41,399 bases of DNA from an uncultured Pirellulales bacterium (GTDB taxonomy: Bacteria > Planctomycetota > Phycisphaerae > Sedimentisphaerales > Anaerobacaceae), in NCBI GenBank assembly GCA_964477135.1, contig CAYZEH010000002.1:1-41399 (forward strand). The letters run 5' to 3'. Of this stretch, positions 7,388 through 35,325 are shown piece by piece. A model generated the notes under the pieces. The model was given only the letters and a program-made list of their open reading frames with translations. It was not told the DNA's origin and did no database searches. Both the position numbers and the translations under genes were made by a program. Within the stretch, counting starts at the first letter, position 1. Every line of letters begins with the position of its first letter.

Positions 7388-7431
7388 GGCCTGCTGTAAA
7401 TATTGAATAAGAACTATTGAGGATGCTTAAA

Positions 7432-8466: not shown

Positions 8467-8484
8467 AAGAATCAGATTGTAAAT

Positions 8485-9324: not shown

Positions 9325-9326
9325 GA

Positions 9327-9443
9327 AATATACCTTAAGGGTAGTATCCCGATATATCGGGGCCGCGAATAAAGTTGTAATTTGTTATTTTCAAGTTATT
9401 TACCCGCGGATAAACGGGTAAATTCAATTAGGATCAGTATATA
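9327..9443 (+). repeat. Mosaic intergenic repeat, copy E (longest form: H1 - X - 2a - 3)
   Basis: AATATACCTTAAGGGTAGTATCCCGATATATCGGGGCCGCGAATAAAGTTGTAATTTGTTATTTTCAAGTTATTTACCCGCGGATAAACGGGTAAATTCAATTAGGATCAGTATA. It starts 3 nt after the lpxI stop (its H1 hairpin begins 7 nt after) and ends 5 nt before the ATG at 9448. Confidence 0.9.
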
Positions 9444-9447
9444 TTTT

Positions 9448-15563: not shown

Positions 15564-16085
15564 ATGGACATAAATATGGTGTTGTTTAAAAAAGACGGGG
15601 GCCTGAAGTCATTTCCGGTCAAGCGAAGCATCGTCACTATAGGCAGAAGCCACAACTGTGATTTTCAGATACCCGTAATGTCAGTATCCAAAAAACACTG
15701 CAAATTAATACGCAAATCAGGCGTTGTGACCATCCGCGACCTTAATTCACGCAATGGAACTCTGGTCAATGGCAAATTAATCAAAGAAACAACTATTAAC
15801 CCCGGCGACTCGATAGAAATAGGGCCTTTGGTATTTGTCATCCAGATAGACAATGAACCATCTGACCTGAAAAACCCTAAATTACCGGAAAATGAAAAAC
15901 TTCTTACCAAAAAAGCTGAAGATTTGCCGCCCAAAACAGAAGATTCGTCTAAAGAGGGCAAACAAAATATTCCACTAAGCGACCTTGAGACTGAAGATAT
16001 ACCAGCCGATGACTTGGTTGAAGGGAGTGATTTTCTCGACCTGGACGAGCTTGGAGACCTCAGCGATCTCGAAGAATTGAAATAA
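15564..16085 (+). CDS. FHA domain protein with acidic C-terminal tail
   Basis: FHA core: VTIGRSHNCDFQIPVMSVSKKHCKL...IRDLNSRNGTLVNGKLI. The C-terminal 40 aa are D/E/L-rich (DLVEGSDFLDLDELGDLSDLEELK). Confidence 0.85.
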   Translation: MDINMVLFKKDGGLKSFPVKRSIVTIGRSHNCDFQIPVMSVSKKHCKLIRKSGVVTIRDLNSRNGTLVNGKLIKETTINPGDSIEIGPLVFVIQIDNEPSDLKNPKLPENEKLLTKKAEDLPPKTEDSSKEGKQNIPLSDLETEDIPADDLVEGSDFLDLDELGDLSDLEELK

Positions 16086-16162
16086 TTAATGCTTAGATGC
16101 GGTTAAAAAATTAATTCAATCACATATTAAAAGTTTTATATCAAAGTTCTTAAAAGTACAAC

Positions 16163-16191
16163 TTGTGTCTGAATAGGAACTGTGTTATTAT
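16163..16191 (+). promoter_or_regulatory. Candidate promoter upstream of the membrane-anchored GspE-like ATPase
   Basis: TTGTGT (16163-16168), 17 nt spacer, TATTAT (16186-16191), with an extended -10 TG at 16183-16184. Confidence 0.3.
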
Positions 16192-16245
16192 TCTTGCTAT
16201 AAATTAAGAGGTTTTTTGGTTAATATTACGTTGTGAAAGAGGAAA

Positions 16246-17757
16246 TTGGTGCAAACTTTGGTTTTTAGTCCTGTCAAAATGGCATTGCTAATAGGGTGGT
16301 TTTTTCTGTGCTTTTGGCTTGCTCAACGAAGCCAGTACAGCTTATTAGTGCCAAAAGACAAAAAAACAATCGCAGCTTTGATGTCTTTGCTATTGGGACC
16401 AATCGCATTCGCCCTTTTTCTTTTTATCGACCTGGTAAAAAAGTCGTTTCAAAGCCAAAGCAGCATAATTGAACTTTTAAAAGAGTTCATTGCAAACATG
16501 TACAAAAAACAAGAGAACAGTGACGAATTCTCGATCAATCTCTTTGACTCAACCGGAAGAAACATTAAAGAAATCTACAGCCATGGCAGATCGAGCAGAG
16601 ATTTGCAGGTTCTTGACCTTACTACGGAAATAATATGGAAAGGGCTCGAACTTAATGCAAGCGATATTCTTATAGACCCGAAAGATGACTCGATATCTAC
16701 GGTAAGGCTTAGGATAGATGGGGTATTGAGAATCGTAGATCAGTTAGAAACAGATACCTGTCAGGCAGTGGTTAACAGTATCAAAGCAGTAGCCAATATG
16801 GATATAGCAGAAAGAAGAAGGCCTCAGGACGGAGCTTTTACCGCCAAAACAATTACAGGAAATGTTTCTTTCAGGGTAGCCAGTGCGGGCGTCTTAAATG
16901 GCGAGAAGCTTTCTATAAGGGTACTCAACCAGAATGCAAATCGATTTAGACTTGATAACATCGGTATTTCAAAAAAACAAGCGGCAATAATTGAAAATGC
17001 GATGAAAAAACCTTCCGGTATGATACTGATGTGCGGGCCTACCGGCAGCGGAAAAACTACCACTATGTACGGCATGTTGAATGAAATTGATTTCAGCCAG
17101 CGTAATGTGATCACGGTTGAGGATCCGATAGAGTATGTTCTGCCTCAGGCAAGTCAGATCGAGGTAAACCCAAAAGCTGATATCACTTTTGCAAAATCAT
17201 TAAGGAGTATTTTAAGGCAGGACCCGGATGTAATATGTGTTGGTGAGATTCGAGATGAAGAAACTGCAGCTATTGCCCTGAGGGCATCCCAAACGGGCCA
17301 TCTGGTACTTGCTACAATACATAGTAACAGCAATGCGGCAACAATTGTGAGGCTAATCGACCTGGGGATCAGTCCTCTGCTTATATCTACAGGTCTTAGC
17401 ATGCTTATATCTCAAAGGCTTGTGCGTAAACTTTGTAATAATTGTAAACAGCAGGCTAACCTTAGCCAGGCACAGATATTGAGCTTTAGAAAGAAAAAAA
17501 TTAATTACCTGAATATTTATGAAGGTGTCGGCTGTGAAAAATGTCATGGAACCGGATATCTCGGAAGAATAGCTATTTGTGATATGCTTGGTCTCGATGA
17601 TAATCTCAGGACACTTATCGCAAATGAAAAACTTGACATTGGTAAGCTAAGGCAAAGCGGTGACGAAAAAGGTAAATCTAATCTTAAGAAACAAGGATTG
17701 AGAAAGGTTGTCTCAGGAATAACAAGTCTGGATGAACTTAAACGGGTTTTAGGGTAA
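16246..17757 (+). CDS. GspE/PilB-family secretion ATPase with N-terminal transmembrane anchor (motifs intact)
   Basis: Walker A GPTGSGKT (17035-17058), Asp box TVEDPIEY, Walker B DPDVICVGEIRD, His box GHLVLATIHS, tetracysteine CNNC...CEKC. The first ~65 aa form two hydrophobic helices in place of the usual soluble N1/N2 domains. The start is uncertain (TTG 16246, GTG 16249 or ATG 16279). Confidence 0.8.
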   Translation: MVQTLVFSPVKMALLIGWFFLCFWLAQRSQYSLLVPKDKKTIAALMSLLLGPIAFALFLFIDLVKKSFQSQSSIIELLKEFIANMYKKQENSDEFSINLFDSTGRNIKEIYSHGRSSRDLQVLDLTTEIIWKGLELNASDILIDPKDDSISTVRLRIDGVLRIVDQLETDTCQAVVNSIKAVANMDIAERRRPQDGAFTAKTITGNVSFRVASAGVLNGEKLSIRVLNQNANRFRLDNIGISKKQAAIIENAMKKPSGMILMCGPTGSGKTTTMYGMLNEIDFSQRNVITVEDPIEYVLPQASQIEVNPKADITFAKSLRSILRQDPDVICVGEIRDEETAAIALRASQTGHLVLATIHSNSNAATIVRLIDLGISPLLISTGLSMLISQRLVRKLCNNCKQQANLSQAQILSFRKKKINYLNIYEGVGCEKCHGTGYLGRIAICDMLGLDDNLRTLIANEKLDIGKLRQSGDEKGKSNLKKQGLRKVVSGITSLDELKRVLG

Positions 17758-17761
17758 TTTT

Positions 17762-18415
17762 ATGGTCGTGCTTATTGGAATTATAGCTGGATTGATTTTT
17801 GCGTGGATGGCTATCAGGATGGGGCTTTATGTCACTTGGTCTGTCATGTTCAATCTAATTGTCTCAATTTATCTGGCTATATCCCTGGGCCCTGTTATTG
17901 CTGACAAGTTGCCATTAGAAGGCAGTTTCGGTGCAGCAGTTATTTTAGTCGGTTTTGCAGCAGCAGTCTTTACACTGCTTCAAGGCGCTTGTTATCTATT
18001 TATTACCAGCCAATACGAAATGTCTTTCCCAAAGCTTTTTGACAGCGTAACTTCCAGTATCATCGGCTTTTTAGCTGGAATGCTGATTGTAAGCTTCCTC
18101 TCTCTTCCAATAGGGATTATACGCCAAGGTCTGTCTGCTAAAAGTAGCTACAAAGAAAGTTCTCAATTGGCCAATTCAGCTTATCTTGACTTCTGGTACA
18201 ACACTATGCATTCACTGGTAGGAACAAAGGAGAATACACGAACAGAAAAGTTAATTGCTGAAATAATCAAAAACACCCAAAAAGTTAAAAGAGCCAAATC
18301 AACAACTAAAGCGGTTGAAACAGTCGAAATGGTTGAACCAAACGAGCCTGAAGTTGAAAAAGTTATAAAGGACGGACCTGGAGAACCGCCAGAATTTGAT
18401 TTTGACAAAATATAA
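17762..18415 (+). CDS. CvpA-like small polytopic membrane protein with charged C-terminal tail
   Basis: Four predicted TM helices. The N-terminus IGIIAGLIFAWMAIRMGLYVTWSVMFNLIVSIYLAISL resembles CvpA-family topology. The ATG is 4 nt after the upstream stop, consistent with translational coupling. Confidence 0.45.
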   Translation: MVVLIGIIAGLIFAWMAIRMGLYVTWSVMFNLIVSIYLAISLGPVIADKLPLEGSFGAAVILVGFAAAVFTLLQGACYLFITSQYEMSFPKLFDSVTSSIIGFLAGMLIVSFLSLPIGIIRQGLSAKSSYKESSQLANSAYLDFWYNTMHSLVGTKENTRTEKLIAEIIKNTQKVKRAKSTTKAVETVEMVEPNEPEVEKVIKDGPGEPPEFDFDKI

Positions 18416-18521: not shown

Positions 18522-19523
18522 TTATTCAGCGTTTTCTTTTATGTATGCTATCAGCTCATCGACCTGAGCAAATGCAAGACCTGTCACTGTATCAGCAGCA
18601 CCATAGTAAATGGCGATCTTGCCGCTCGGTGCGTCCGTTAAGGCTGCACATGGGAAACAAACATTAGGAGTATCACCAACACATTCATAGTCTCTTTGTG
18701 GTGACAGCAGATAAGGTTTGCAACGATATTTAACTTTCCAAGGCTCATCAATATCAAGGATCGCACCACCCATGCTGTATACAAAACCGTTACAGCTTGT
18801 TAATACGCCGTGATAAATCATCAGCCAACCTTCCGTAGTTTCGATTGGGGTTGGTCCAGGACCTACTTTTGTACATTCCCAACTCATAACACCGCCACGT
18901 CTTGAGCCAAACAGGAATCTGTGTTTGCCCCAGTAGGTCATATCTTTGCTGCGACTAAGAAAAATGTCGCCGAAAGGAGTGTGTCCCGTATCAGAAGGTC
19001 TTGACAGCATTACAAATTCGCCATTGATCTTTCTCGGGAACAATACACCATTTCTGTTATAAGGCAAAAATGCATTTTCCAACTGGTGGAAAGTTTTGAA
19101 GTCCTCTGTGTATCCGACACCTATAGTGTAGCCGTTATAGTTATTGCACCAGATCACATAATATTTACCATCAACCAGGCAAACTCTGGGGTCATAACGT
19201 TCAATAGAATTAGCTATCTCAGGGTCATCACATTGGAATTTTATAGTTTCATTATCGATCTCAAAATTGATACCATCTTTACTGCGACCAGCGTGAAGGT
19301 CCATGTGTCTGCTTCGGTCGTCAACTCTGAATACGCCTGCAAATCCACCCTCGAAAGGCACCACCGCACTGTTAAATATCGCATTTGCGCACGGAATAAG
19401 ATTCCTGGGAATCACAGGATTGGCATCATAACGCCAAACAACATCATTCTTACAATCCGCCGGCTTATCCTGCCAAGGGATATTCGGCAAAGCTTCTCCA
19501 ATAATCGTCTGTTTTCCTGACAT
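18522..19523 (-). CDS. Glycoside hydrolase family 130 protein (beta-mannoside phosphorylase-type)
   Basis: 333 aa. N-terminal PWQDKP...VWRYDANPVIPRN...NSAVVPFEGGFAGVFRVDD and five-bladed propeller-like repeats are typical of GH130. Confidence 0.8.
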   Translation of the reverse strand: MSGKQTIIGEALPNIPWQDKPADCKNDVVWRYDANPVIPRNLIPCANAIFNSAVVPFEGGFAGVFRVDDRSRHMDLHAGRSKDGINFEIDNETIKFQCDDPEIANSIERYDPRVCLVDGKYYVIWCNNYNGYTIGVGYTEDFKTFHQLENAFLPYNRNGVLFPRKINGEFVMLSRPSDTGHTPFGDIFLSRSKDMTYWGKHRFLFGSRRGGVMSWECTKVGPGPTPIETTEGWLMIYHGVLTSCNGFVYSMGGAILDIDEPWKVKYRCKPYLLSPQRDYECVGDTPNVCFPCAALTDAPSGKIAIYYGAADTVTGLAFAQVDELIAYIKENAE

Positions 19524-19613: not shown

Positions 19614-20252
19614 TTATCGCATAATCCAGTTTTGCTCTTTGAATTTTAAAATCGCGTCTGATCGAAATAACGGATCGCCTCCAAGTTTGTAATCAAGCTC
19701 AAGGGTTTTCCTGAGAAAAACTTTCTTTGCATTACCATTTTCATCCTTAGCGGTCGGATGATCTAATTCAATTGTCTCATTGCTGAGCCCGGCAACAAAG
19801 AAGCTTACATTTTTAGCCTTCGGGGCAAAATCAGACCAGATAATCGCAACATCCTTTATATTGTCCTGCCCCTGAAGCACTTTATTGCTTGTCTTATCAA
19901 TAGACTCAAGGAACGGATATTGTTTCTGATGCCGACGTTTGATCTGGTTAAACACAGAAGGCGGCACATTTATGCCGGCTGGAACAATCTGAAATGTGTC
20001 TGTCATAAGCTCACATTTAGGATAAAAATCAACATCATCACCGGTTTCATTCGTCAATGTCATGATCATATACCAGAATCTTACCGGATGCCTTTGCCCT
20101 TCAAAACGAATCATTATTTGCTGTGGATGCTTATACTTGACATCTACTGTCCATTGCTGAGCTGACTGCACAATTGCCGGCGAAGGTGCTGCCTGACAAA
20201 AACTTCCACTGATAACCAATATTGCTGAAAAAAGATAAATGTATTTCTTCAT
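19614..20252 (-). CDS. Secreted hypothetical protein
   Basis: 212 aa with a clear signal peptide (MKKYIYLFSAILVISGSFCQA). No recognisable domain. Confidence 0.6.
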   Translation of the reverse strand: MKKYIYLFSAILVISGSFCQAAPSPAIVQSAQQWTVDVKYKHPQQIMIRFEGQRHPVRFWYMIMTLTNETGDDVDFYPKCELMTDTFQIVPAGINVPPSVFNQIKRRHQKQYPFLESIDKTSNKVLQGQDNIKDVAIIWSDFAPKAKNVSFFVAGLSNETIELDHPTAKDENGNAKKVFLRKTLELDYKLGGDPLFRSDAILKFKEQNWIMR

Positions 20253-20665: not shown

Positions 20666-22066
20666 ATGTCAGACGAAAAAAAACAGCTATTGCAGCAACT
20701 CGAACCCTTAATTGAACAAGGAAACAGAGACCTCATAGCAGAGTTGCTCAAGGACCGCCGAAGCAGTGATATCGCTGAAATCGTGGAAACTTTCGACAGC
20801 GAAGAGTCTCGGCTTATTTTCGATTCCCTCGACAAAGAAACATCCGCCGAGATTCTTGAAAAAGTTGACGAAGCCACCAGGTCAGAACTTTTCGATGTAC
20901 TAAGTTTGCAAGAGATAACATCATTAGTCTCTGAAATGGACCCCGATGACGCAGCAGACGTTCTCATGGAACTGTCGGAAGAAGGGATCGCAGAAGTAGT
21001 CGATCAGCTGGAGCCGGAAGAATCTGCCAAGATAAAAAAACTAATGCAGTATTCTGAGGATTCCGCGGGCGGTATTATGGACCCCGTAGTTATCTCGGTT
21101 GATGAAAACGCAACTGTTGCTGAAGCAATAAATAAAATTCGCTCCGCTGAATTAGATGAAGACTTCTACAGCGTATACGTTGTGAATAAACACCGGTTAT
21201 TCCTCGGCGACGTACGTATAAGACTACTGTTGATAAACTCAGAAGATACAAAAATCAGCAAGCTTATCGACCCTGATACAATGTATGTCACAGCTGACGC
21301 CGATCAGGAAGAAGTGCGAAATATCTTCAGTAAAAACGATCTGATAGTTGTCCCCGTACTGGACAGACACCATAAACTTATAGGCCGAATTACCGCTGAC
21401 CGTATTATCGAAGTCGCAGAAGAAGAGGCAGCTGAGGACCTCTACGCAATGGCTGGTACCGATGCGAACGAGCTCGATACCATCTCAAGTATCAATGCAG
21501 CGAAGGTAAGAATGACCTGGCTGCTGCCATGTCTGATAGGCACGGGAATAACTGCTCTGGTAATTATGTTATTTCATAAGGTCTTCAGCTTAGACAGCAT
21601 GGGATTGGTATTCACCTCAGCTGTTCCTTTCGTACCGATGGTCGGTGCTTTAAGTGGAAATGCCGGACTCCAGACCTCTGCGATTGTTATCTCAGGCCTT
21701 GCAACAGGCCACCTCGCAGCTGAAAGATTGGGGCAGGTCTTTATGCGTGAAGTCAAAATTGCCTTAGTCGTTGCTATCTGCTGCGGAATAATTGGTGCCG
21801 TGGTGTGCAGCTTCCTGCCAAGCCTGATGGGCAATGAAAACGCAGCAACTATCGAATTCTCTAAGCATCTCAGGATAGTTATGGCATTTGGCATCTCGAT
21901 GTTTTCAGCTATAATGATAGCTACAACATTAGGGCTTTTCCTGCCGTTTTTGTTTAGAAAAATAGGTATAGACCCTGCTATCAGTTCTGGTCCATTGGTT
22001 ACTACTGCTAACGACTCAATCAGTGCAACTATCTTTATGCTTCTCACATTTTTGCTCACAAAATAA
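20666..22066 (+). CDS. mgtE: Magnesium transporter MgtE
   Basis: 466 aa with an N-terminal acidic MgtE_N domain, a tandem CBS pair and a five-helix C-terminal channel domain (GNAGLQTSAIV motif). Confidence 0.92.
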   Translation: MSDEKKQLLQQLEPLIEQGNRDLIAELLKDRRSSDIAEIVETFDSEESRLIFDSLDKETSAEILEKVDEATRSELFDVLSLQEITSLVSEMDPDDAADVLMELSEEGIAEVVDQLEPEESAKIKKLMQYSEDSAGGIMDPVVISVDENATVAEAINKIRSAELDEDFYSVYVVNKHRLFLGDVRIRLLLINSEDTKISKLIDPDTMYVTADADQEEVRNIFSKNDLIVVPVLDRHHKLIGRITADRIIEVAEEEAAEDLYAMAGTDANELDTISSINAAKVRMTWLLPCLIGTGITALVIMLFHKVFSLDSMGLVFTSAVPFVPMVGALSGNAGLQTSAIVISGLATGHLAAERLGQVFMREVKIALVVAICCGIIGAVVCSFLPSLMGNENAATIEFSKHLRIVMAFGISMFSAIMIATTLGLFLPFLFRKIGIDPAISSGPLVTTANDSISATIFMLLTFLLTK

Positions 22067-22161: not shown

Positions 22162-22189
22162 TTGACAAACCGATGCAAAGCCTTATAAT
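22162..22189 (+). promoter_or_regulatory. Near-consensus sigma70 promoter for the pilT module
   Basis: TTGACA (22162-22167), 16 nt spacer, TATAAT (22184-22189), about 110 nt upstream of the GTG at 22301. Confidence 0.6.
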
Positions 22190-22300: not shown

Positions 22301-23434
22301 GTGATTGATGGACAACCGATAGGCAGTCATGTAACACTTGATCATGACCCGGAAATTAATAAATTTTTCAGAGCTGCAATCAAGGTAGCCGCCAGTGACC
22401 TCCACCTCAAAGTAGGCATGGTTCCAAAATTAAGAATCAATGGTTCTTTAAAAAATACTACAGGTGACAAATTAACCGAGGAATTTGCAGAAAAGTTGAT
22501 ATTTGAAATTGTCACTGAGGGGCAGAAGAAGTTCTTCCTTGAAAAAGGCGCTCTTGACTTTGCACATCAAGTCGGCCCTGCTGACAGATTCCGTGTTAAT
22601 ATCTTCCGTCAACGTGGTTTTATAAGTCTTGCTGCAAGACATATTACAAGCAATATCCCGGCATTTGAAAGCCTTCACATGCCGAAGACCGTTGAAAAGA
22701 TAGCTGAGAACCATGCCGGAATGGTACTTGTTACAGGCCCAACCGGTTGTGGTAAAAGTACTACTATCGCTTCTATGATCGACCACATAAACCGTACCAG
22801 GCCCTGTCACATCGTTACCATCGAAGACCCATTGGAGTTTTTGCATAACGACAAAAAAGCTATCGTTTCGCAAAGAGAGATAGGAATAGACGTCCCGGAT
22901 TTCGAAGCTGCACTGAAATCTCTTATGCGTCAGGACCCTGACGTTGTTCTCGTTGGGGAGATCAGGGATAATGAAACACTAACTGCTGCAATGAGAGCTG
23001 CTGAAACGGGGCATATGGTATTCGGAACTCTGCACTCTGTTAGTGCAGCTCAGACTATCCAGAGAATTCTTGATATGTTCCCGCAGGAAGAAAGGGGTCT
23101 GGCAAGACAGACTTTTGCTTTAACTATCAGGGCTATTGTCAGTCAGCAACTTCTGCCGGGTATTAAGCCTGAAGCTAAGAGAATACCTGCTATTGAGATC
23201 CTGATAGCTAACCCGATCGTAAGGAAGCTCATCTCTGAAGAAAGAGAGGCTGACATCCCAGCTGCCATAAAAGCATGTCAGAATGAAGGTATGCAGGATT
23301 TCACTGAGTCGCTGCGAATACTTATCCTGGAAGAGTGGATAGACCTGAAAGTCGGTCTTGACTACGCACCGAATGTCGAAGAGTTGAAAATGGCACTAAA
23401 GGGGATCAGAAGTTCTACAAGCGGTATCCTGTAA
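22301..23434 (+). CDS. pilT: Type IV pilus retraction ATPase PilT/PilU family (motifs intact)
   Basis: GTG start after TAGGAG. Motifs: ASDLHLKVG, Walker A GPTGCGKST, TIEDPLEF, DPDVVLVGEIRD, GHMVFGTLHS. Confidence 0.88.
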   Translation: MIDGQPIGSHVTLDHDPEINKFFRAAIKVAASDLHLKVGMVPKLRINGSLKNTTGDKLTEEFAEKLIFEIVTEGQKKFFLEKGALDFAHQVGPADRFRVNIFRQRGFISLAARHITSNIPAFESLHMPKTVEKIAENHAGMVLVTGPTGCGKSTTIASMIDHINRTRPCHIVTIEDPLEFLHNDKKAIVSQREIGIDVPDFEAALKSLMRQDPDVVLVGEIRDNETLTAAMRAAETGHMVFGTLHSVSAAQTIQRILDMFPQEERGLARQTFALTIRAIVSQQLLPGIKPEAKRIPAIEILIANPIVRKLISEEREADIPAAIKACQNEGMQDFTESLRILILEEWIDLKVGLDYAPNVEELKMALKGIRSSTSGIL

Positions 23435-23446
23435 TTTTAATTTCAA

Positions 23447-25126
23447 ATGGAGCATCTCATGCCTGATTTATTATTGACTTCTGTTATTTTTGGAAGCTAT
23501 ATATCGATAGTAAAGCTTATTGTTTTTATGGCTCTGTTCTTTGGTTGGCTTTGGCTTATAACCTGGGTATATGATGACGCAATAACAGTTGAAACGAAAG
23601 AAGTATTCTGGAGTTCCTTAGTCTTTGGCATCGGTGCCGGTGCCGCTTTACTGTGGATGATGATTCCAATGTTCGCGATAGGTTTAGCCGTATATATACT
23701 GGCTGTGGGCATAAGTTCAATCCTTTATACAACACACCGCAACACAAGGGTAATGCAATCGGATAAAATATTAACACTTAAACACATACAAAGCCTTTTA
23801 ACCAAAAAAGATAAAAATGCCAAAGTTCAGATAAAAGGCTTTACTTTCTACACCGCAAATAAAAATGAAGTTCCAAAACCCGAAGCCAAAAGTAAGGACT
23901 TCCATGGATACAAAGCTGCTCATGACATTATAAATGACGCTTTGGAAAAAAGAACCAGCAGCATTATTTTCTCTCCAACACCACATAATTATTCAATTGC
24001 TTACAATATCGACGGTGTAAATTTAAAACAGCCGGAAATGGAAGTGCAACTGACACACTACCTCATTCGTTTTCTGAAACAATTAGCGGACCTCAACATC
24101 GAAGAAAAACGAAAACCGCAAAGCGGAAGGTTCAGAATAAGAAAAGATGATGATATTACTGACTGGGAAATTCTCTGTGCCGGCTCAACAGCAGGCGAGC
24201 AATTCCAACTCAGGCTCATGACACAGGAAGTAGAAGAAAGGGTGTCAGATATCGGTTTGCTGCCTAAGCAATTAACAGCAATTGATCAGCTCAAAAATGT
24301 TAAACATGGAATTGTTCTGGTAACAGGCCCAAAACGAAGCGGTGTTACTACGACATTCTACGCAATGCTCAGAAATCATGACGCATTCCTGAATAGTATA
24401 AACACTTTCGAAAGAAAACCAACTGCTGTATTACCAAATATAATACAGGATACTTTCGAATTGACTGATACGGGAACTTCTACATTCTCTAAACGTCTGA
24501 GAAGTATTTACAGAATGGGCCCGGATATCGTAGGCGTTGCAGGATGCCATGACAGTGACACCGCCAAAGAAATATGCAATGCCGCCCAGAATGATATTCT
24601 TAGTTATGTAGTCATCGAAGCTGACAGCGTAACGAAAGCACTGTCTAAATGGATCAAATTGGTCGGAGACCGAAAATTAGCCACGGAAACACTGTCCGGA
24701 ATTTGCAACCAGAGGTTACTAAGAAAACTCTGTGAAGAATGCAAACAGGGATACAGTCCTAATAAGGAACTGCTCAGAAAATTCAACCTTCCTGCCGATA
24801 AAACTAAAGTTATGTACCGCGAGGGTAAAGTAATATACGACAAACATGGCAAACCTTCAACCTGCCCGCAATGTCACGGTATCGGTTTCATCGGAAGAAC
24901 CGGCATATTTGAAATGATATTATTGAATGATAACTTAAGACAGGCGATGTTAAAAGCCAAGTCAATGCAGGAAATTGGTTCTGTTTTCAGAGGTGCTAAA
25001 ATGCTTTACCTTCAGGAACAGGGCCTTAACAAAGTCATTGCAGGGGTAACATCTATCAATGAGATGATAAGGGCTTTGTCATCTTCAGCGTTAAATGTAA
25101 AAAAACCAGTTAAAAAGAATAATTAG
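23447..25126 (+). CDS. Membrane-anchored GspE/PilB-like protein with degenerate ATPase motifs (predicted pseudo-ATPase)
   Basis: It has the same fold signature as the 16246 protein (KRKPQSGRFRI, C-terminal CEEC...CPQCHG). Walker A is GPKRSGVT (24326-24349, Lys replaced by Val). The Asp box is TFERKPT, Walker B is GPDIVGVAGCHD and the His box is DILSYVVIEAD. The N-terminal ~95 aa form three hydrophobic helices. Confidence 0.75.
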   Translation: MEHLMPDLLLTSVIFGSYISIVKLIVFMALFFGWLWLITWVYDDAITVETKEVFWSSLVFGIGAGAALLWMMIPMFAIGLAVYILAVGISSILYTTHRNTRVMQSDKILTLKHIQSLLTKKDKNAKVQIKGFTFYTANKNEVPKPEAKSKDFHGYKAAHDIINDALEKRTSSIIFSPTPHNYSIAYNIDGVNLKQPEMEVQLTHYLIRFLKQLADLNIEEKRKPQSGRFRIRKDDDITDWEILCAGSTAGEQFQLRLMTQEVEERVSDIGLLPKQLTAIDQLKNVKHGIVLVTGPKRSGVTTTFYAMLRNHDAFLNSINTFERKPTAVLPNIIQDTFELTDTGTSTFSKRLRSIYRMGPDIVGVAGCHDSDTAKEICNAAQNDILSYVVIEADSVTKALSKWIKLVGDRKLATETLSGICNQRLLRKLCEECKQGYSPNKELLRKFNLPADKTKVMYREGKVIYDKHGKPSTCPQCHGIGFIGRTGIFEMILLNDNLRQAMLKAKSMQEIGSVFRGAKMLYLQEQGLNKVIAGVTSINEMIRALSSSALNVKKPVKKNN

Positions 25127-25180
25127 ACAATCACGTTAAATAACGGATTTTCTTTATAAAGCTAATTTGGAGAAAAATTG

Positions 25181-26314
25181 ATGGCCGCTTTAGTAATACT
25201 TTTGATAGTCGCAGGTTGTGTTGCATTTGAATTCTTAAAAGGGACCTGTGTAAAAGCTTTTGCTAATCTCATTGCCGTTGTATGCTCTGTCGCAACTGCT
25301 TTTGGCTTTTTCGAAGTACTTGGAAATGTTATCATTGCTCGTCTCGATGTTAGAGATAACGCTGCTGTAATTTCATGGGTAATGCCATTATGCTTTTTGA
25401 TTATTGCTGCTTTGGTTTTTGCAATATTTGAAACAATAATCATTCAGATAATGAAAAAGCCTGTTGACTTTGGCGATCTGCCGGAAAAAATCGGAAGATG
25501 CTGCTTCGGTCTGATAACCGGACTCGTCACCGCCGGTGCTGTACTAACCGTAGTCGCCATGATGCCATTACCATCGCAATACCCTTATCCACGTTTTGAC
25601 AAAAACAACCCTGATGTTCAAAATCCTTCTAAAGTATTGCTAAACATTGACGGCTTCACAACAGGTTGGGCTAACATGATGAGCAAAGGGAGTTTCAGCT
25701 CTGGTAAAAGTCTTGCTTTTATGCACGCTAATTTTCTCGACACCGCCTTTATCACAAGGAACACCGACGATGAAATCTTTGATTTCACTTCAGAAAGTGT
25801 ACTTGAAATTCCAAGGAAAAAAGCTGTCTGGTCTGCCCCTGAAAATTTAAAGGACACTGAAGAAAACGACCTTACTGCCAAAACCGGAAACTCTTTTGTA
25901 ATTGTAAGAATGGGAATCAAAAAATCTATTCTGTCCGAAACCAAAAGGTTTACTGCATCACAAGTCAGGCTTATCGGCAAAAGCGATCTTGACAGCACAC
26001 CGGCGCCTCAAGGTAAGGGACGAACATTCTTCCCGGCTGGATATATGGAAAACAGCGAACAGGCAAAAGTTGTCAAACTCTACGAAGCTATAATAATCGA
26101 TGCCGCAAAAATCCCAGGCAAAACCAAGTGGATAGACTTCTTATTTGAGATCCCCAGGGATTACAAACCTGAAATGATTCAGTTCAAACAAAACAATGCC
26201 GCTATGCTGCCTGCCATGACAGCAACTGAACAGGCACCGGAAATAATCAGCTTCAGCGAACCCAAAAAATTAGAAGAAAGCTCAGATACAGAGAATGCGA
26301 CAGCCGAGGAGTAA
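25181..26314 (+). CDS. CvpA-like membrane protein with large C-terminal extramembrane domain
   Basis: The N-terminal four-helix region (MAALVILLIVAGCVAFEFLKGTCVKAFANLIAVVCSVATAFGFF...) resembles CvpA. About 230 further aa have no recognisable domain. The ATG at 25181 is 8 nt after GGAG. Confidence 0.45.
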   Translation: MAALVILLIVAGCVAFEFLKGTCVKAFANLIAVVCSVATAFGFFEVLGNVIIARLDVRDNAAVISWVMPLCFLIIAALVFAIFETIIIQIMKKPVDFGDLPEKIGRCCFGLITGLVTAGAVLTVVAMMPLPSQYPYPRFDKNNPDVQNPSKVLLNIDGFTTGWANMMSKGSFSSGKSLAFMHANFLDTAFITRNTDDEIFDFTSESVLEIPRKKAVWSAPENLKDTEENDLTAKTGNSFVIVRMGIKKSILSETKRFTASQVRLIGKSDLDSTPAPQGKGRTFFPAGYMENSEQAKVVKLYEAIIIDAAKIPGKTKWIDFLFEIPRDYKPEMIQFKQNNAAMLPAMTATEQAPEIISFSEPKKLEESSDTENATAEE

Positions 26315-26465: not shown

Positions 26466-26493
26466 TTGTCTTTTGTTCTTTTTTGTGTAGAAT
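26466..26493 (+). promoter_or_regulatory. Candidate promoter for acs
   Basis: TTGTCT (26466-26471), 16 nt spacer, TAGAAT (26488-26493). It would give a leader of about 110 nt. Confidence 0.3.
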
Positions 26494-26611
26494 GAAGCGT
26501 CCTATTAGTTTTAGTGTGACAGCCTATGAGGTTTTATATAAAATACTAACCTGTAATATGTACAGGAACTCTAATAATGATAAAATGTATTTACACACAA
26601 AGGAAAGCTTT

Positions 26612-28594
26612 ATGAAAAAGGAAACTACAGACAAAACTATGGATTCTCTCATGAATGAGAATCGAAAATTCCCACCACCTGCCAAGCTGCAAGCTTCTGC
26701 TCACATTTCAAGCCAAGAGCAATATAAACAAATGTGGCAGAAATCTATAGACGATCCGGATGGGTTCTGGCTCGAACAGGCCAAAACTCTAAGTTGGTTT
26801 AAAGAACCTACAAAAAGCCTTGAATACGACTGGGACACAAAAGCTAAAAAAATCGAACACACCTGGTTTGCCGACGGCGAGCTGAATGTCTCTTACAACT
26901 GTCTCGACAGACATCTTGGCACACCTGTCGCAAAAAAAACAGCTCTTATCTGGCAGGGTGAAGAAGAAGACAACGTAAAAAAATACACCTATGAGCAACT
27001 GCACAAAGAAGTCTGCAAATTTGCGAATATACTAAAATCGAAAGGTATCAAAAAAGGCGACAGAATAGCTATATATATGCCGATGGTGCCTGAACTGTCT
27101 ATCGTAATGCTTGCCTGCACACGTATAGGTGCTATACATTCTATAATCTTCGGCGGATTCAGCTCTGATGCCATCCTCGGAAGAGTAAATGACTCTGACT
27201 GCAAAATGCTCATCACCGCTAACGTCTCACTCAGAGCAGGCAAACACATCAGACTAAAAGACATCTCTGACGTTGCTCTGGAAGGTACACCAACTATTGA
27301 AAGCGTAATCGTTGTCAAAGTTAACGATGAACCATGCGATATGAAACAAGACAGGGACACCTGGTACCACGACGAAATGGAAAACGCCAGCGAAGATTGC
27401 CCAGCTGAGCACATGAACGCAGAAGACCCGCTGTTCATACTTTACACCTCAGGCTCAACAGGCAAACCCAAAGGCGTCGTCCACACTACAGGCGGATACC
27501 TCCTGCATACATCACTAACCCATAAACTCATCTTCAACATCCACGATGATGATGTTTACTGGTGCACCGCCGATATCGGTTGGGTTACGGGCCACAGCTA
27601 TATAGTCTATGGACCATTAGCAAACGGCGCAACTTCTGTGATGTTTGAAGGCGTACCGACATATCCCGATGCCGGTAGATTCTGGCAGATATGCGACAAA
27701 TTCGGCATTACTGTATTCTACACCGCTCCAACTGCTATTCGCGCATTGATGAGATACGGCGATGAATGGCCCGCAAAATATAAACTCGACTCTTTAAGAA
27801 TTCTCGGAAGTGTTGGCGAACCAATAAATCCGGAAGCATGGATGTGGTACTATAATAAGATCGGTCATGGCAAATGTCCGATTGTCGATACATGGTGGCA
27901 AACCGAAACAGGTGGTTTTATGATTACACCAATGCCCGGTGCTCACACTCTAAAACCAGGCAGTGCATCCAGACCTTTCTTCGGCGTAGATACTGCCGTA
28001 CTAAGGGACGACGGATCACAGTGCGATGTTAATGAAGGTGGAAAACTTGTCATTCGTAAGCCTTGGCCTGGAATGATGAGAACCATGTGGGGCGACCACG
28101 ACCGCTTCATCGAAACTTACTTCACAATGTATGATGACATATATTTTGCTGGTGACGGCTGTCGAATCGATGAAGACGGCGACTACTGGCTGATGGGAAG
28201 GATCGACGATGTGGTAAATGTTTCAGGTCACAGGATAGGAACAGCAGAAGTCGAAAGCGCATTGGTAAGCCATCCAAAAGTAGCTGAAGCTGCGGTAACG
28301 CCCGTTCCACACGAAATCAAAGGCCAAGGCCTATATGCTTTCGTTACTCTTATTAATGGCATAGAAGAAAGCGATGAACTAAAGAAGGAACTAATCATGC
28401 ACGTCAGGAAAGAGATAGGCCCTATTGCAGCACCAGAAGCTGTTCAATTCGCCCCATCTCTGCCGAAAACCCGTTCCGGTAAGATCATGAGACGAATCCT
28501 CAGAAAGATCGCAGAAAAAAATACTGACAACCTCGGTGATATTTCTACTCTTGCTGATCCTTCAGTAGTTGAAAAACTTATCGCAGCAAGATAA
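26612..28594 (+). CDS. acs: Acetyl-CoA synthetase (AMP-forming)
   Basis: AMP-binding signature YTSGSTGKPKG, WWQTETGG, and C-terminal PKTRSGKIMRR holding the conserved acetylatable Lys (aag 28481-28483). The start is set at ATG 26612 (SD AAAGGAAAG), not the tracked 26483. Confidence 0.93.
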   Translation: MKKETTDKTMDSLMNENRKFPPPAKLQASAHISSQEQYKQMWQKSIDDPDGFWLEQAKTLSWFKEPTKSLEYDWDTKAKKIEHTWFADGELNVSYNCLDRHLGTPVAKKTALIWQGEEEDNVKKYTYEQLHKEVCKFANILKSKGIKKGDRIAIYMPMVPELSIVMLACTRIGAIHSIIFGGFSSDAILGRVNDSDCKMLITANVSLRAGKHIRLKDISDVALEGTPTIESVIVVKVNDEPCDMKQDRDTWYHDEMENASEDCPAEHMNAEDPLFILYTSGSTGKPKGVVHTTGGYLLHTSLTHKLIFNIHDDDVYWCTADIGWVTGHSYIVYGPLANGATSVMFEGVPTYPDAGRFWQICDKFGITVFYTAPTAIRALMRYGDEWPAKYKLDSLRILGSVGEPINPEAWMWYYNKIGHGKCPIVDTWWQTETGGFMITPMPGAHTLKPGSASRPFFGVDTAVLRDDGSQCDVNEGGKLVIRKPWPGMMRTMWGDHDRFIETYFTMYDDIYFAGDGCRIDEDGDYWLMGRIDDVVNVSGHRIGTAEVESALVSHPKVAEAAVTPVPHEIKGQGLYAFVTLINGIEESDELKKELIMHVRKEIGPIAAPEAVQFAPSLPKTRSGKIMRRILRKIAEKNTDNLGDISTLADPSVVEKLIAAR

Positions 28595-28612
28595 TAAAAA
28601 TATATTTGAACA

Positions 28613-28655
28613 TTATATGCCGGGCGTGTATAAGCCATATACGTCCGGCATATAA
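28613..28655 (+). promoter_or_regulatory. Long intercistronic hairpin / palindrome between acs and the MFS gene
   Basis: TTATATGCCGGGCGTGTATA - AGCC - ATATACGTCCGGCATATAA. There are 11 perfect outer bp plus about 6 inner bp with one G-T pair and one bulge. No T-tract follows. It ends 17 nt before the ATG at 28673. Confidence 0.5.
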
Positions 28656-28672
28656 ATTTGAAAGGAACTCTC

Positions 28673-29929
28673 ATGGCCGAAGAAAAAGTTATGAATCGCT
28701 GGTTTGTTGTCGTTGGGGCACTTATAATTCAGCTTTGCCTCGGTGCAATATATGCCTGGGGTGCATTTACCGGAGCTCTCCAGGACCCCGAAGGACTGTT
28801 TAAATATTCCGGAGTACAAACATCATGGATATTCTCAGCAGGACTGGCATCTTTCGCCATCGTAATGATCTTGGCTGGAAGACTTCAGGATAAATACGGG
28901 CCAAGGATTATTGCTATCATAGGCGGTTTAATACTTGGAGCAGGTTATATAATTGCAGGCTTTACCGGGACATCTTTTCCTTTAATGTTAATATTCATTG
29001 GAATTGTCGGAGGCGCAGGTATAGGTATGGGATACGTTTGTCCGATTGCTGCTTGTGTAAAATGGTTCCCTGACCTCAAAGGTCTGATTACAGGATTGGC
29101 AGTTGCAGGCTTTGGAGCGGGTGCTTTTATTTTCGTAAAACTGGCAGGCTCATGGATGAATCTAATCGCGAATCATGGTATCAATGGAACCTTTTTGATA
29201 TTCGGAATTATCTTTGCTGTCTTTGTTGTATTAGGTTCGCTTTTGCTTTCTAATCCGCCCACAGGATGGAAACCTGCTGGTTGGCAGCCCCCGTTAGCAG
29301 CAGATGGAAACAAAAAAGCCGAAGTCAAAAACCTTACACAAGGAGAAACTGTTAAAACTGTTCAGTTCTGGATGATCTGGCTTTCATTTGTTTTCAGCGC
29401 AGGTTGCGGATTAATGGTAATCAAGTGCCTTAAAAATTTCGGTGTTTTGCAAGGCGGACTAACACCCGCAGCAGCAGGCTCGGCATTAGGACTTCTGGCA
29501 TTATTTAATGGACTGGGGCGTGTAGTCTGGGGGGCTCTTTCACATAAACTAACTGCCAAATTTTCTGTTGTTCTTATGTGCATCACCCAGGCATTGATGA
29601 TGTTCGTACTCGTAAAAATGGGCGATAATACATCTACACTTTCAGTTGCTGCCTGTTGGTTAGGTTTTAACTTCGGAGGCAACTTCGCATTATTCCCACT
29701 TTTGACTTTAGAAAACTTCGGAGCGAAAAACCTCGGCGCAAATTATGGTGCCGTTTTCACTGCCTATGGCGTAGGCGGGATATTAGGCCCTGTAATGGCT
29801 GGAAAAGTCTGGGACACTATGGGCAAATTCGATACTGCTTTTGTAGTCGCAGCCATAGCATGTGTGGCAGCTGCTGCCTTAGCTATCGCACTTAGGCATA
29901 TCAAAGCAGAAGCTGAACCAGCAGAATAA
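28673..29929 (+). CDS. MFS transporter, OFA (oxalate/formate antiporter-like, monocarboxylate) family
   Basis: 12-TM MFS. The N-terminus NRWFVVVGALIIQLCLGAIYAWGAF is typical of OFA/L-lactate-type MFS proteins. ATG at 28673 with SD AAAGGAA. Confidence 0.8.
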   Translation: MAEEKVMNRWFVVVGALIIQLCLGAIYAWGAFTGALQDPEGLFKYSGVQTSWIFSAGLASFAIVMILAGRLQDKYGPRIIAIIGGLILGAGYIIAGFTGTSFPLMLIFIGIVGGAGIGMGYVCPIAACVKWFPDLKGLITGLAVAGFGAGAFIFVKLAGSWMNLIANHGINGTFLIFGIIFAVFVVLGSLLLSNPPTGWKPAGWQPPLAADGNKKAEVKNLTQGETVKTVQFWMIWLSFVFSAGCGLMVIKCLKNFGVLQGGLTPAAAGSALGLLALFNGLGRVVWGALSHKLTAKFSVVLMCITQALMMFVLVKMGDNTSTLSVAACWLGFNFGGNFALFPLLTLENFGAKNLGANYGAVFTAYGVGGILGPVMAGKVWDTMGKFDTAFVVAAIACVAAAALAIALRHIKAEAEPAE

Positions 29930-29952
29930 GAAAAATAAACATGACCAATAAA

Positions 29953-29982
29953 GGCCCGGATGTTGAATTCGGGTCTTTTTTT
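29953..29982 (+). terminator. Rho-independent terminator after the MFS gene
   Basis: GGCCCGGA (29953-29960) pairs with TTCGGGTC (29968-29975): 8 bp including two G-U pairs, with a 7 nt loop. It is followed by TTTTTTT (29976-29982). Confidence 0.7.
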
Positions 29983-30010
29983 ATTAGTGAACACGAAAAA
30001 TTAAATTGCT

Positions 30011-31147
30011 CTAAATTCCGTGCAGTTTGAAAATGTTTTTCCTGATCGCTTCTATCGTACTGTCTATCTTGGTCGGCACAGAATTTTTTTGTTCCCCGCT
30101 GATAACCAATTCTCTATCTCTAAGTCCACCCTGCCAGTCGGTGCTTTCCATCATAACCCCACCCATACCGATATTCATATCACTGCCATCATCCTGACCG
30201 CTCAACACCGTCCATGCAAAGGCCCACGCCCGAACAGTATTTTCGATATTATATCCGCCACCGCCCGTAGCAAGGATCGGCTTATTATATTTAAGTAGTA
30301 TATTAATAATATCCGCATAAGTATTATTCGTTAAATAAAGACGCGCAAGAGGATCGCCCGCTAAAGTATCCGCCCCCAACTCAAAAACTATCACATCAGG
30401 CTCATAAAATTCTATCAACGGGACAACAACGGTTTTAAAAACCCTCATATACTCCTGGTCATATGTCCCCACCGGCAAAGGCACATTAACACTATAGCCC
30501 TTTCCACTGCCGCTACCGATTTCATCCTCAAAACCGGTTCCCGGAAACAACGTTTTGCCGCTCTCGTGGAAAGAAACTGTCATCACATCATCTCTGTAAT
30601 AGAAGAAGTCCTGCACCCCGTCACCATGATGAACGTCAACATCAAGATACAACACCCTTTTGCCCGCTTTGGTAAGCAATTCACAACCGATACCAACATC
30701 ATTGAGATAACAAAATCCGCTTGACCTTTCCTGGTGTGCATGGTGCAGACCGCCGGCAGGATTAAACACCACATCAGCCTGACCTTGGATTATCATCTCC
30801 GCGCCTTTAACCGTCGCCCCGCAAGCTATCGCAGAATTTTCATACATCCCCTTAAACACCGGGCAATCCGAAGTCCCAAGCCCCATATGCAATGCCTCAA
30901 TATCGAAAGCCCCCTCGCTGGTTTTTTTCAAAACATCAATATATTTCCTCGTATGAAATATTTCCAGAATCTGCTCATTCGCCTGCTCCTGACAGACATC
31001 AACCCTGCTGCCGCCGGCAAGCATCCCCATAGACTTAAGCACTTTCCTGGTTTTGCCTGCCCTGCTGGTATTAAAAGGGCAACTCTCAGGATAAGGATAC
31101 TTCTCAAACTGCTCAGAATATATAAAAGCAGATTTCCTACTCACCAA
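30011..31147 (-). CDS. acuC: Histone-deacetylase-family protein deacetylase (AcuC / acetoin utilization type)
   Basis: GGLHHAHQERSSGFCYLND and DVDVHHGDGVQ zinc/active-site motifs. 378 aa. TTG start at 31147 (alternative GTG at 31144). Confidence 0.85.
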   Translation of the reverse strand: MVSRKSAFIYSEQFEKYPYPESCPFNTSRAGKTRKVLKSMGMLAGGSRVDVCQEQANEQILEIFHTRKYIDVLKKTSEGAFDIEALHMGLGTSDCPVFKGMYENSAIACGATVKGAEMIIQGQADVVFNPAGGLHHAHQERSSGFCYLNDVGIGCELLTKAGKRVLYLDVDVHHGDGVQDFFYYRDDVMTVSFHESGKTLFPGTGFEDEIGSGSGKGYSVNVPLPVGTYDQEYMRVFKTVVVPLIEFYEPDVIVFELGADTLAGDPLARLYLTNNTYADIINILLKYNKPILATGGGGYNIENTVRAWAFAWTVLSGQDDGSDMNIGMGGVMMESTDWQGGLRDRELVISGEQKNSVPTKIDSTIEAIRKNIFKLHGI

Positions 31148-31162
31148 ACATTTCTCTCTTAA

Positions 31163-33034: not shown

Positions 33035-33049
33035 TGGGCACCTGCCTTT

Positions 33050-35152: not shown

Positions 35153-35325
35153 TTCCACCTCAGAATTTCTCAAAACATCCACAAATATAAGACCACTGAC
35201 GCCCCATTTTTACACAAAAGACCAGCCTTTGTAAAGAATTTTTGTCACTTTTTCAACAACCTTTATTGCGATAAACAACTTTTTTCAAGAACAAAAAACC
35301 ACCCTCACTGGCAACAGACTGATTT

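Follow-up and report, generated by a model that had tools for sequence, protein, structure and literature searches.

A conserved predicted operon of Planctomycetota joins PilT to a membrane-anchored, catalytically degenerate GspE/PilB-like protein and a CvpA-like protein

PilT is the textbook motor of pilus retraction, and how it engages the membrane machinery is still debated. In the archaellum, the RecA/KaiC-like protein FlaH, which binds ATP without hydrolysing it, is located between the motor ATPase FlaI and the platform protein FlaJ. The planctomycete cell has an enlarged periplasm and bears crateriform structures and pili, the machinery of which has not been characterised molecularly. 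The CvpA family of membrane proteins spans 55 phyla and is of unknown function, and the CvpA of Escherichia coli is genetically tied to envelope-stress (sigma-E) signalling (bioRxiv 10.1101/2020.09.25.314492). Here, we describe three adjacent genes encoding PilT (gene 1), a membrane-anchored pseudo-ATPase of the GspE/PilB type (gene 2) and a CvpA-like protein (gene 3) in a 41,399-nucleotide stretch of DNA (hereafter the window; contig CAYZEH010000002.1 of assembly GCA_964477135.1) from an uncultured Pirellulales bacterium, whose closest public relatives are metagenome-assembled genomes of Phycisphaerae/Sedimentisphaerales. The original prediction, which was made from the letters of the window, had proposed these genes as a compact ATPase module and had considered their combination uncharacterised; likewise, no published description of a PilT combined with a dead membrane GspE and a CvpA-like protein was found in our literature searches.

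The three genes correspond to same-strand open reading frames (ORFs) in the ORF list of the window (Table 1), and their neighbourhood was compared in a scan of GTDB with one genome per species, which yielded the 80 closest loci, all from Phycisphaerae; the breadth beyond this class was followed by a representative search and individual contig look-ups. The results supported the view of the trio as a unit. PilT lies directly upstream of the pseudo-ATPase gene in 78 of the 80 species loci, and the CvpA-like gene lies directly downstream of it in 78 of the 80, both co-oriented with it, with median gaps of 31 nt on the PilT side and 57 nt on the CvpA-like side. The exceptions are contig ends or an N-masked stretch: in the one locus without a detectable CvpA-like gene (L075, 10502-11032), MASAAVIVIILGC is followed by a run of X exactly where the gene begins, so the apparent absence is an artefact of the data. 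The same order of PilT, pseudo-ATPase and CvpA-like genes was found in eight loci at 23-34% identity (L086, L088, L090, L091, L092, L093, L094 and L175), which span Phycisphaerae and Planctomycetia and include Sedimentisphaerales, Planctomycetaceae (L091) and two multi-megabase contigs, and it was kept in every distant locus long enough to display both neighbours. In L093 the PilT stop codon overlaps the next start as TAATG, and the called gene coordinates of L090, L091, L092 and L094 give the same one-base overlap. The genes flanking the trio vary between loci, with a hisF-like gene often upstream of it in the distant ones (L086 of Phycisphaerae, L091 of Planctomycetia and several unassigned loci), and all taxon-specific source names belong to Planctomycetota (Thermoguttaceae, Pirellulales, Rhodopirellula, Planctomycetaceae and Sedimentisphaerales). 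Judged by this strict linkage, the three genes form one conserved operon of Planctomycetota, found in both of the classes sampled, Phycisphaerae and Planctomycetia.

The most unusual member of the trio is the product of gene 2, whose Pfam match is limited to the T2SSE domain, with no N-terminal Pfam domain, and which scores far below the equivalog cut-offs of both GspE (TIGR02533, 203 vs 630 bits) and PilB (TIGR02538, 180 vs 676 bits). The AlphaFold2 (AF2) model (pLDDT 84.9) consists of transmembrane (TM) helices at residues 21-47, 52-72 and 76-101, a linker, and then the N2 domain and a C-terminal PilB-like core. The top Foldseek matches of this model are the cores of PilF, PilB and GspE, with a TM-score of 0.91 and an rmsd of 2.2 Å to PilF (5oiu). 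No soluble N1E or GSPII/MshEN domain, of the kinds that bind GspL/PilM or c-di-GMP, was found in the protein, which carries the three TM helices instead. Alignment with Thermus PilF revealed that the catalytic motifs are degenerate: the Walker A lysine is replaced by valine (GPKRSGVT), FERKP stands in place of IEDP and VAGCHD in place of VGEIRD, the Asp box and the Walker B glutamate are gone together with both histidines of the His box, and the CxxC...CxxC and EKRKPQSGR motifs are retained. The original prediction of about three N-terminal TM helices and of degenerate catalytic motifs is thus in agreement with the AF2 model and with the PilF and family alignments.

These features are not peculiar to the window. 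The family, which proved large and highly diverse, was collected by an exhaustive search of 1.8 billion cluster representatives, and a motif table was compiled for the 119 full-length representatives among the top 150 matches. All 119 have N-terminal TM segments, 107 lack the Walker A lysine, and only 6 are fully canonical. The zinc-motif cysteines C429, C432, C473 and C476 are conserved in 97-100% of the family and the RKPQxG arginine motif in 86-91% of its members, and the P-loop shape [GAS]P..xGx[ST][ST] is retained despite the loss of the lysine. The conserved residues among 120 diverse family members include W34, D44, W55, P74, Y94, R98 and N99 of the TM domain. Identity of the pseudo-ATPase is 55% across Sedimentisphaerales, compared with 62% for PilT, and 23-34% across classes, compared with 47-56% for PilT; though identity falls in this way, the cysteines, G299, D312, R426 and several TM-domain residues stay 90-100% conserved. 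Because these key residues are maintained, the pseudo-ATPase is a selected protein under purifying selection and not a decaying gene. Taken together, gene 2 encodes a membrane-anchored GspE/PilB-fold protein that, on the loss of its motifs, is catalytically dead.

Several other readings of gene 2 were tried and rejected. A TadA identity, the name given by NCBI to some homologues, was dropped since no TadA model is among the NCBIfam matches of gene 2, the best of which are GspE and PilB. A relocated catalytic lysine (GPK or GPxK) was considered; lysine or arginine at P-loop positions 3-4 is common but not universal, and Walker B and the His box are gone. The linker motif FxTANxNEVP, considered as a PilT-docking peptide, is strictly kept in close relatives only; in distant ones just a loose hydrophobic-x-(V/L)P pattern remains, too weak a basis for this reading. 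Separately, the distant matches of the search include proteins of about 1000 aa with two complete tandem T2SSE domains (P0227, P0229, P0237, P0241, P0245, P0252, P0260, P0264 and others), most of which have two intact Walker A motifs and none of which has TM segments.

Gene 1 scores 407.2 bits against the PilT model TIGR01420, above its cut-off of 319.1, which places it in the curated PilT family, and its best match of solved structure is Aquifex PilT (2ewv), over the full length, at E 1.4e-85. All of its catalytic motifs are intact in comparison with 2ewv, namely Walker A (GPTGCGKST), the Asp box (IEDPLEF), Walker B (DPDVVLVGEIRD) and the His box (TGHMVFGTLHS). By family and motifs it is a bona fide PilT, as had been predicted.

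Gene 3 was expected to encode a protein of 377 aa with a CvpA-like four-helix N-terminus and a large uncharacterised C-terminal domain, and the AF2 model and the Foldseek results were in line with this description. Its match to PF02674 (Colicin_V/CvpA) reaches 27.3 bits over residues 5-134, just under the gathering score of 29.3. Of 71 homologues, 59 reach E ≤ 1e-3 with PF02674, down to 4.8e-10, and the Planctomycetia orthologues carry matches to it as well. The AF2 model (pLDDT 87.8, pTM 0.83) shows four TM helices at residues 2-21, 24-55, 62-91 and 100-128, to which a helical linker and a C-terminal beta-sandwich are added; E46 and G111xxxG115 are invariant in the alignment. The four helices and the GxxxG motif are traits of the CvpA family, and the side of the membrane on which the C-terminus lies is deduced: following the positive-inside rule and the published topology of CvpA (bioRxiv 10.1101/2020.09.25.314492), the beta-sandwich is probably periplasmic. 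The Phycisphaerae versions have this domain, the Planctomycetia loci examined lack it, and no Pfam family matches it. Comparison of Phycisphaerae proteins of the gene 3 type with the short CvpA-like proteins of Planctomycetia trios by hhalign gave a probability of 97.6%. Foldseek against the PDB returned for gene 3 a single match at E ≤ 0.001, to an uncharacterised Clostridioides beta-sandwich (5bxg, E 3.1e-4, probability 0.99), followed by a weaker match to YcdA, and the TM domain had no significant match, so that structural searches did not place the protein in a well-known unrelated family and gave no lead on its function. In four of the distant loci, where the CvpA-like proteins are short (203-219 aa; L090, L092, L093 and L094), a same-strand gene of 261-285 aa directly follows the CvpA-like gene; it matches no Pfam family or, weakly, DUF4190, it was not seen in L091 or in the window, and the operon of that lineage may have it as a fourth gene.

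The consensus promoter that had been predicted upstream of the three genes was recovered at all 12 consensus positions, leaving a leader of 111 nt between it and the PilT gene, the GTG start of which (22301) is preceded by an AGGAG ribosome-binding site. Promoter-like sites as a class are not enriched in the window (16 observed vs 16.6 expected in shuffles), and only the complete match is therefore notable. The hexamers are retained in the two closest genomes (L006 and L007), which is little informative because the entire intergenic region there is 92% identical. A second consensus, matching at 11 of 12 positions, lies at 21888-21915 (+), some 390 nt ahead of PilT and inside the MgtE gene towards its 3′ end, and could be an additional start site or a chance occurrence. 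Rfam and tRNA scans of the window gave no matches, and no riboswitch was found upstream of MgtE or in the leader. The originally predicted coordinates hold for the three ORFs and were revised for two of the starts. Gene 2 most likely begins at ATG 23459, which has GGAG 6 nt upstream and agrees with homologues that begin MPDLLL, giving 555 aa rather than the 559 aa of the ORF; according to ribosome-binding-site positions and homologue starts, gene 3 most likely begins at ATG 25181, giving 377 aa.

A module paralogous to the last two genes of the trio, absent from the original prediction, was found 4.5 kb upstream in the window (15564-18415, +). It comprises an FHA-domain protein, an active-type membrane-anchored GspE ATPase (TM-GspE) and a short CvpA-like protein (Table 1). 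The ATPase has an N-terminal hydrophobic region and intact GPTGSGKTT, VEDPIEY, VGEIRD and TGHLVLATIHSN motifs, and it aligns with the pseudo-ATPase almost from end to end, the TM region included, at 29% identity. BLASTP found no match between the two CvpA-like proteins of the window, and hhalign of the family of the 217-aa protein (A4) against the trio CvpA-like proteins (A3) gave a probability of 98.3% and E 2.5e-14. By profile-profile comparison through the intermediate family, the long Phycisphaerae, the short Planctomycetia-trio and the paralogous-module CvpA-like proteins are thus homologous. The FHA gene is kept beside the ATPase/CvpA-like pair only in the closest relatives, L006 and L007; no homologue of it was detected by BLAST (E ≤ 1e-5) in L087 or L095-L100. 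The pair itself recurs beyond these relatives: in L087, a Schlesneria-like locus, an active TM-GspE stands next to a Colicin_V protein of 244 aa, and the ATPase/CvpA-like pair is found again in the metagenome loci L095-L097, L099 and L100.

The specificity of this pairing was apparent from a metagenome scan, which used the active TM-GspE alignment with generic GspE motifs, drew mostly soluble GspE/PilB loci in consequence, and serves as a control rather than a survey. Among its 80 GspE relatives, a CvpA-like gene lies directly downstream in 5 of 5 membrane-type loci and in 0 of 75 soluble ones (Fisher's exact test, about 4e-8 by our own arithmetic); four of the five membrane-type proteins have at least 2 detected TM segments, and the fifth (L096) has 1 and aligns from residue 5. 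On gene pairing, membrane-anchored GspE-type proteins, whether active or dead, have the CvpA-like protein as their specific partner, with PilT beside the dead version only. In a rough neighbour-joining tree, canonical TM-GspEs are basal, forms with partial motifs intermediate, and degenerate forms make up one nested clade. The PilT-linked member in L175 still has the Walker A lysine, which suggests that the association with PilT predates complete decay.

The original prediction had further stated that no other pilus parts are present in the 41 kb. A Pfam scan of ORFs with a length of 120 aa or more, restricted to the 31 substantive ones (the other 13 mostly overlap larger genes on the opposite strand), detected no PilC/GspF, PilMNOP, secretin or prepilin peptidase, and no prepilin N-methylation motif was found in the six frames of the window. 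The statement therefore stands for these components, and it does not extend to the second T2SSE ATPase and its CvpA-like neighbour at 16246-18415. A complete type IV pilus or type II secretion system (T2SS) cluster with pilin, peptidase, platform, alignment proteins and secretin was not found in the window, and PADLOC defence models gave only weak P-loop matches for the two active ATPases and none for gene 2 or 3. The relatives modify this picture. Where the sequence reaches 6.5 kb or more upstream, as it does in 45 related loci, a PilC-family gene lies 4-6 kb away in 10. The 10 loci that were mapped (L074, L053, L070, L028, L013, L025, L040, L019, L011 and L080) show a divergent PilB-PilC(-pilin) cluster, some 4-8 kb upstream, which encodes a soluble canonical PilB of 589-602 aa and a PilC/GspF of about 427 aa; in 5 of these 10 a pilin gene is present as well, with a prepilin-type N-terminus (AFTIVELL...). 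In L175, three T2SSF genes and N_methyl pilin-like genes lie 2-3 kb downstream of the trio. In addition, a Gemmataceae genome paper describes the complete genes for a type IV pilus, PilT among them (PMC7397252). The proposal of a stand-alone module is thus only partly supported: it describes the window, whereas some relatives carry PilB-PilC(-pilin) or GspF-pilin clusters nearby and full sets of type IV pilus genes occur in planctomycete genomes.

From these findings, we propose that the soluble PilT hexamer has a dock or platform in the inner membrane, built by the dead ATPase together with the CvpA-like protein, a reading to which we give about an even chance. In this scenario, the ancestral unit would have been a self-anchored active GspE with a CvpA-like partner, which would persist as the FHA/TM-GspE/short CvpA-like module 4.5 kb upstream. 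After duplication, one copy of the ATPase would have lost catalysis while its fold, zinc motif, membrane anchor and CvpA partner were retained, so that the dead ATPase would be the fossil of a self-anchored extension-type motor, with ATP hydrolysis now provided by PilT. The physical complex, the docking of PilT and the link to pilins are all deductions from sequence: with such a complex, the soluble retraction motor would have a platform in the membrane other than PilC, and in Phycisphaerae the beta-sandwich of the CvpA-like protein would reach from it into the periplasm. The module would most likely act as a retraction or disassembly station, or as a point of membrane recruitment and regulation, and would work for the type IV filament machinery (pili or pseudopili) encoded elsewhere in planctomycete genomes.

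Several points weigh against this proposal. Canonical PilT works on PilC platforms without such an adaptor, and the need for one is not obvious. The window and most related loci have no pilin or PilC gene within 8-10 kb, and the link to pili draws on a minority of genomes and on the role of PilT elsewhere. The flanking genes are often housekeeping ones (hisF-like, MgtE) and silent on the function of the trio. The tree behind the proposed evolutionary order carries no support values, and the retained P-loop shape of the pseudo-ATPase would leave room for ligand binding and a purely regulatory role.

Such a role is the substance of the first alternative, in which the pseudo-ATPase would be a switch and not a structural dock: it would bind a nucleotide or second messenger in its degenerate P-loop, or sense the state of the envelope by way of its TM domain and the CvpA-like protein, and would set the timing of retraction by sequestering or releasing PilT. 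Parallels exist in the c-di-GMP-binding N-terminal domains of MshE and PilB and in FimX/PilZ. The glycine scaffold of the P-loop and the Ser/Thr that follow it are retained although the lysine is lost, and the FHA protein of the paralogous active module points to phospho-dependent regulation; the sigma-E link of E. coli CvpA (bioRxiv 10.1101/2020.09.25.314492) would fit a sensor as well. However, no ligand-binding domain was identified in the pseudo-ATPase, the nucleotide pocket is heavily remodelled by the loss of the Asp box, Walker B and the His box, and the overlap of its start codon with the PilT stop suggests that the two co-assemble in stoichiometric amounts, unlike a regulator that is present sub-stoichiometrically. 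We regard this alternative as unlikely.

No more probable, in our judgement, is a pilin-independent envelope machine specific to Planctomycetota, in which T2SSE motors would drive something other than filament assembly, for example remodelling of the membrane or envelope, or uptake or export across the enlarged periplasm, through an active arm (FHA/TM-GspE/CvpA-like) and a PilT-driven arm. The strict pairing of TM-GspE and CvpA-like proteins in two paralogous modules, the lack of PilC, pilin and peptidase genes in the window or within 8-10 kb in most loci, and the hisF-like synteny in L086, L091 and several unassigned loci, which suggests an ancient, vertically inherited core function, are all consistent with such a machine. 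Against it, pilus or T2SS-like clusters lie beside the trio in some genomes, the operon encodes no candidate for an alternative substrate, and to our knowledge every characterised PilT acts on type IV filaments.

A further explanation holds that the pseudo-ATPase and PilT form heterohexamers or stacked hexamers in which the former tunes the latter, the CvpA-like protein merely stabilising the anchor. The N2 and C-terminal domains, which form the hexamer interfaces of PilB and PilT, are retained, as is the arginine motif in most members, and the tandem double-T2SSE proteins show that the fold tolerates hetero-arrangements. But the PilT and GspE/PilB-type subunits of the window are only about 25% identical, and we know of no mixed hexamers of the two subfamilies, which makes this explanation very improbable. 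Finally, a merely fortuitous adjacency of PilT to two unrelated membrane-protein genes is effectively refuted: the linkage holds in 78 of 80 species, it extends over two classes at 23-34% identity, and stop and start codons overlap.

A gene for an apparently secreted protein of 212 aa and the gene for the magnesium transporter MgtE, which in related genomes separate the trio from the PilB-PilC(-pilin) cluster, were considered as members of the system and rejected: synteny with the trio is limited to 29 of the 80 loci for the former and 35 for the latter, and neither is present in the Planctomycetia loci. In 18 loci, a small HEAT-like gene of 150 aa lies between MgtE and PilT. Downstream of the trio (26483-35182), the window carries an acetate/acetyl-CoA cluster, encoding an AMP-forming acetyl-CoA synthetase, an MFS transporter, a histone-deacetylase-family protein, an acetyl-CoA hydrolase/transferase-GNAT acetyltransferase fusion and an ADP-forming acyl-CoA synthetase-like protein (CoA-binding and ATP-grasp), which looks like acetate metabolism joined to the control of protein acetylation. 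Two genes of the GH130 (beta-1,4-mannooligosaccharide phosphorylase) family are found at 18522-19523 (-) and 36115-37074 (-). At 7417-10860 (+), LpxD, LpxI and a Kdo/WaaP-family kinase follow in series, and these lipid A/LPS genes are consistent with a Gram-negative-type outer membrane in this planctomycete.

Table 1. Positions of the trio, the paralogous module and neighbouring features in the window.
Feature	Position	Strand	Description and basis
FHA-domain protein	15564..16085	+	Heads paralogous module; PF00498, E 7e-20
Active-type membrane-anchored GspE ATPase	16246..17757	+	503 aa; PF00437, 379 bits
Short CvpA-like membrane protein	17762..18415	+	217 aa; PF02674, E 2.3e-4 (weak)
212-aa protein	19614-20252	-	Apparent N-terminal signal sequence; no Pfam family; divergent from MgtE gene
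MgtE magnesium transporter	20666-22066	+	Between 212-aa gene and trio
Sigma-70-type promoter (predicted from sequence)	22162..22189	+	TTGACA, 16 nt spacer, TATAAT; 12/12 consensus positions
Gene 1, PilT-family retraction-type ATPase	22301..23434	+	377 aa; TIGR01420 and alignment to Aquifex PilT 2ewv
Gene 2, membrane-anchored pseudo-GspE/PilB	23447..25126	+	559 aa ORF; PF00437, 174 bits; AF2 model and Foldseek
Three-helix TM domain of gene 2	23507..23749	+	Residues 21-101; AF2; in place of soluble GspE/PilB N1 domains
Degenerate Walker A of gene 2	24326..24352	+	GPKRSGVTT (Lys to Val); alignment to PilF, family alignment, motif table
Tetracysteine motif of gene 2	24731..24874	+	CxxC...CxxC, GspE/PilB-type zinc-binding motif; family alignment
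Gene 3, CvpA-family membrane protein with C-terminal extension	25178..26314	+	PF02674 weak match; AF2 model
Four-helix CvpA-like TM domain of gene 3	25181..25561	+	Residues 2-128; AF2 helices
C-terminal beta-sandwich of gene 3	25826..26206	+	Residues 217-343; AF2 strands

A phylum that ties PilT to a dead, membrane-embedded copy of an assembly motor is a natural experiment for the study of motor docking and of pseudo-enzymes reused as scaffolds, and the strict pairing of TM-GspE and CvpA-like proteins provides a testable functional context for the CvpA family. The genetic evidence is clean and opens questions on all three subjects, PilT docking, pseudo-enzyme scaffolds and CvpA function, the function of the module itself being deduced from it. 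The operon, present in both classes sampled, is an obvious target for planctomycete cell biology. Judged by their motifs, hundreds of Planctomycetota entries named "GspE", "PilB" or "TadA" are catalytically dead membrane proteins, and the database names "GspE/PilB-like" and "TadA" are generic ones. In its widest form, which we hold to be improbable, the evidence would describe an unrecognised, Planctomycetota-wide class of T2SSE-motor machine, built on TM-GspE and an obligate CvpA partner in place of a PilC/GspF platform, with an FHA-regulated active arm and an arm driven by PilT via the dead motor, which might power a process independent of pilins in the unusual envelope of planctomycetes; if this were true, CvpA would gain its first mechanistic context, that of an ATPase-coupled membrane platform.

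Compared with the PilB/PilT-PilC machinery of type IV pili and the GspE-GspL-GspF machinery of the T2SS, the trio has a true PilT and the GspE/PilB N2 and C-terminal fold with its zinc motif; here, too, an ATPase is paired with a polytopic inner-membrane protein, and an active extension-type paralogue coexists with PilT. The differences lie in the means of attachment and in the partner: gene 2 is anchored by its own three TM helices and not recruited through GspL or PilM, it is, by its motifs, catalytically dead in contrast to GspE and PilB, its membrane partner belongs to the CvpA family and not to PilC/GspF (T2SSF), and, unlike type IV pilus and T2SS operons, the trio operon is devoid of pilin, peptidase, alignment-complex and secretin genes. 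The nearest functional analogy is with FlaH, also a non-hydrolysing protein of ATPase fold encoded beside a real motor and regarded as a bridge between motor and platform; FlaH, however, is soluble and of another ATPase lineage, and the bridge in the trio would be a membrane-embedded, degenerate paralogue of an extension motor. PilU, an accessory retraction ATPase dependent on PilT, likewise is a second T2SSE-family protein encoded beside pilT and proposed to act through PilT (PMC6762196, PMC6821130), but it is a soluble, active paralogue of PilT, whereas gene 2 is of the GspE/PilB type, membrane-anchored and predicted to be inactive. Enterobacterial CvpA has a four-TM inner-membrane domain (PF02674) that contains a GxxxG motif, followed by a C-terminal segment which lies in the periplasm and varies in length (bioRxiv 10.1101/2020.09.25.314492); gene 3 resembles it in the four helices, the GxxxG motif and a C-terminal part that is probably periplasmic. 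In E. coli, by contrast, CvpA lies in the purF operon and is connected with colicin V production, bile resistance and sigma-E signalling, with no reported link to T2SSE ATPases, whereas gene 3 scores just below the Pfam threshold and bears a 250-residue extension that includes a beta-sandwich. As read from sequence, a dead, membrane-anchored GspE-type protein with a CvpA-family partner would thus be unprecedented in a type IV filament motor module.

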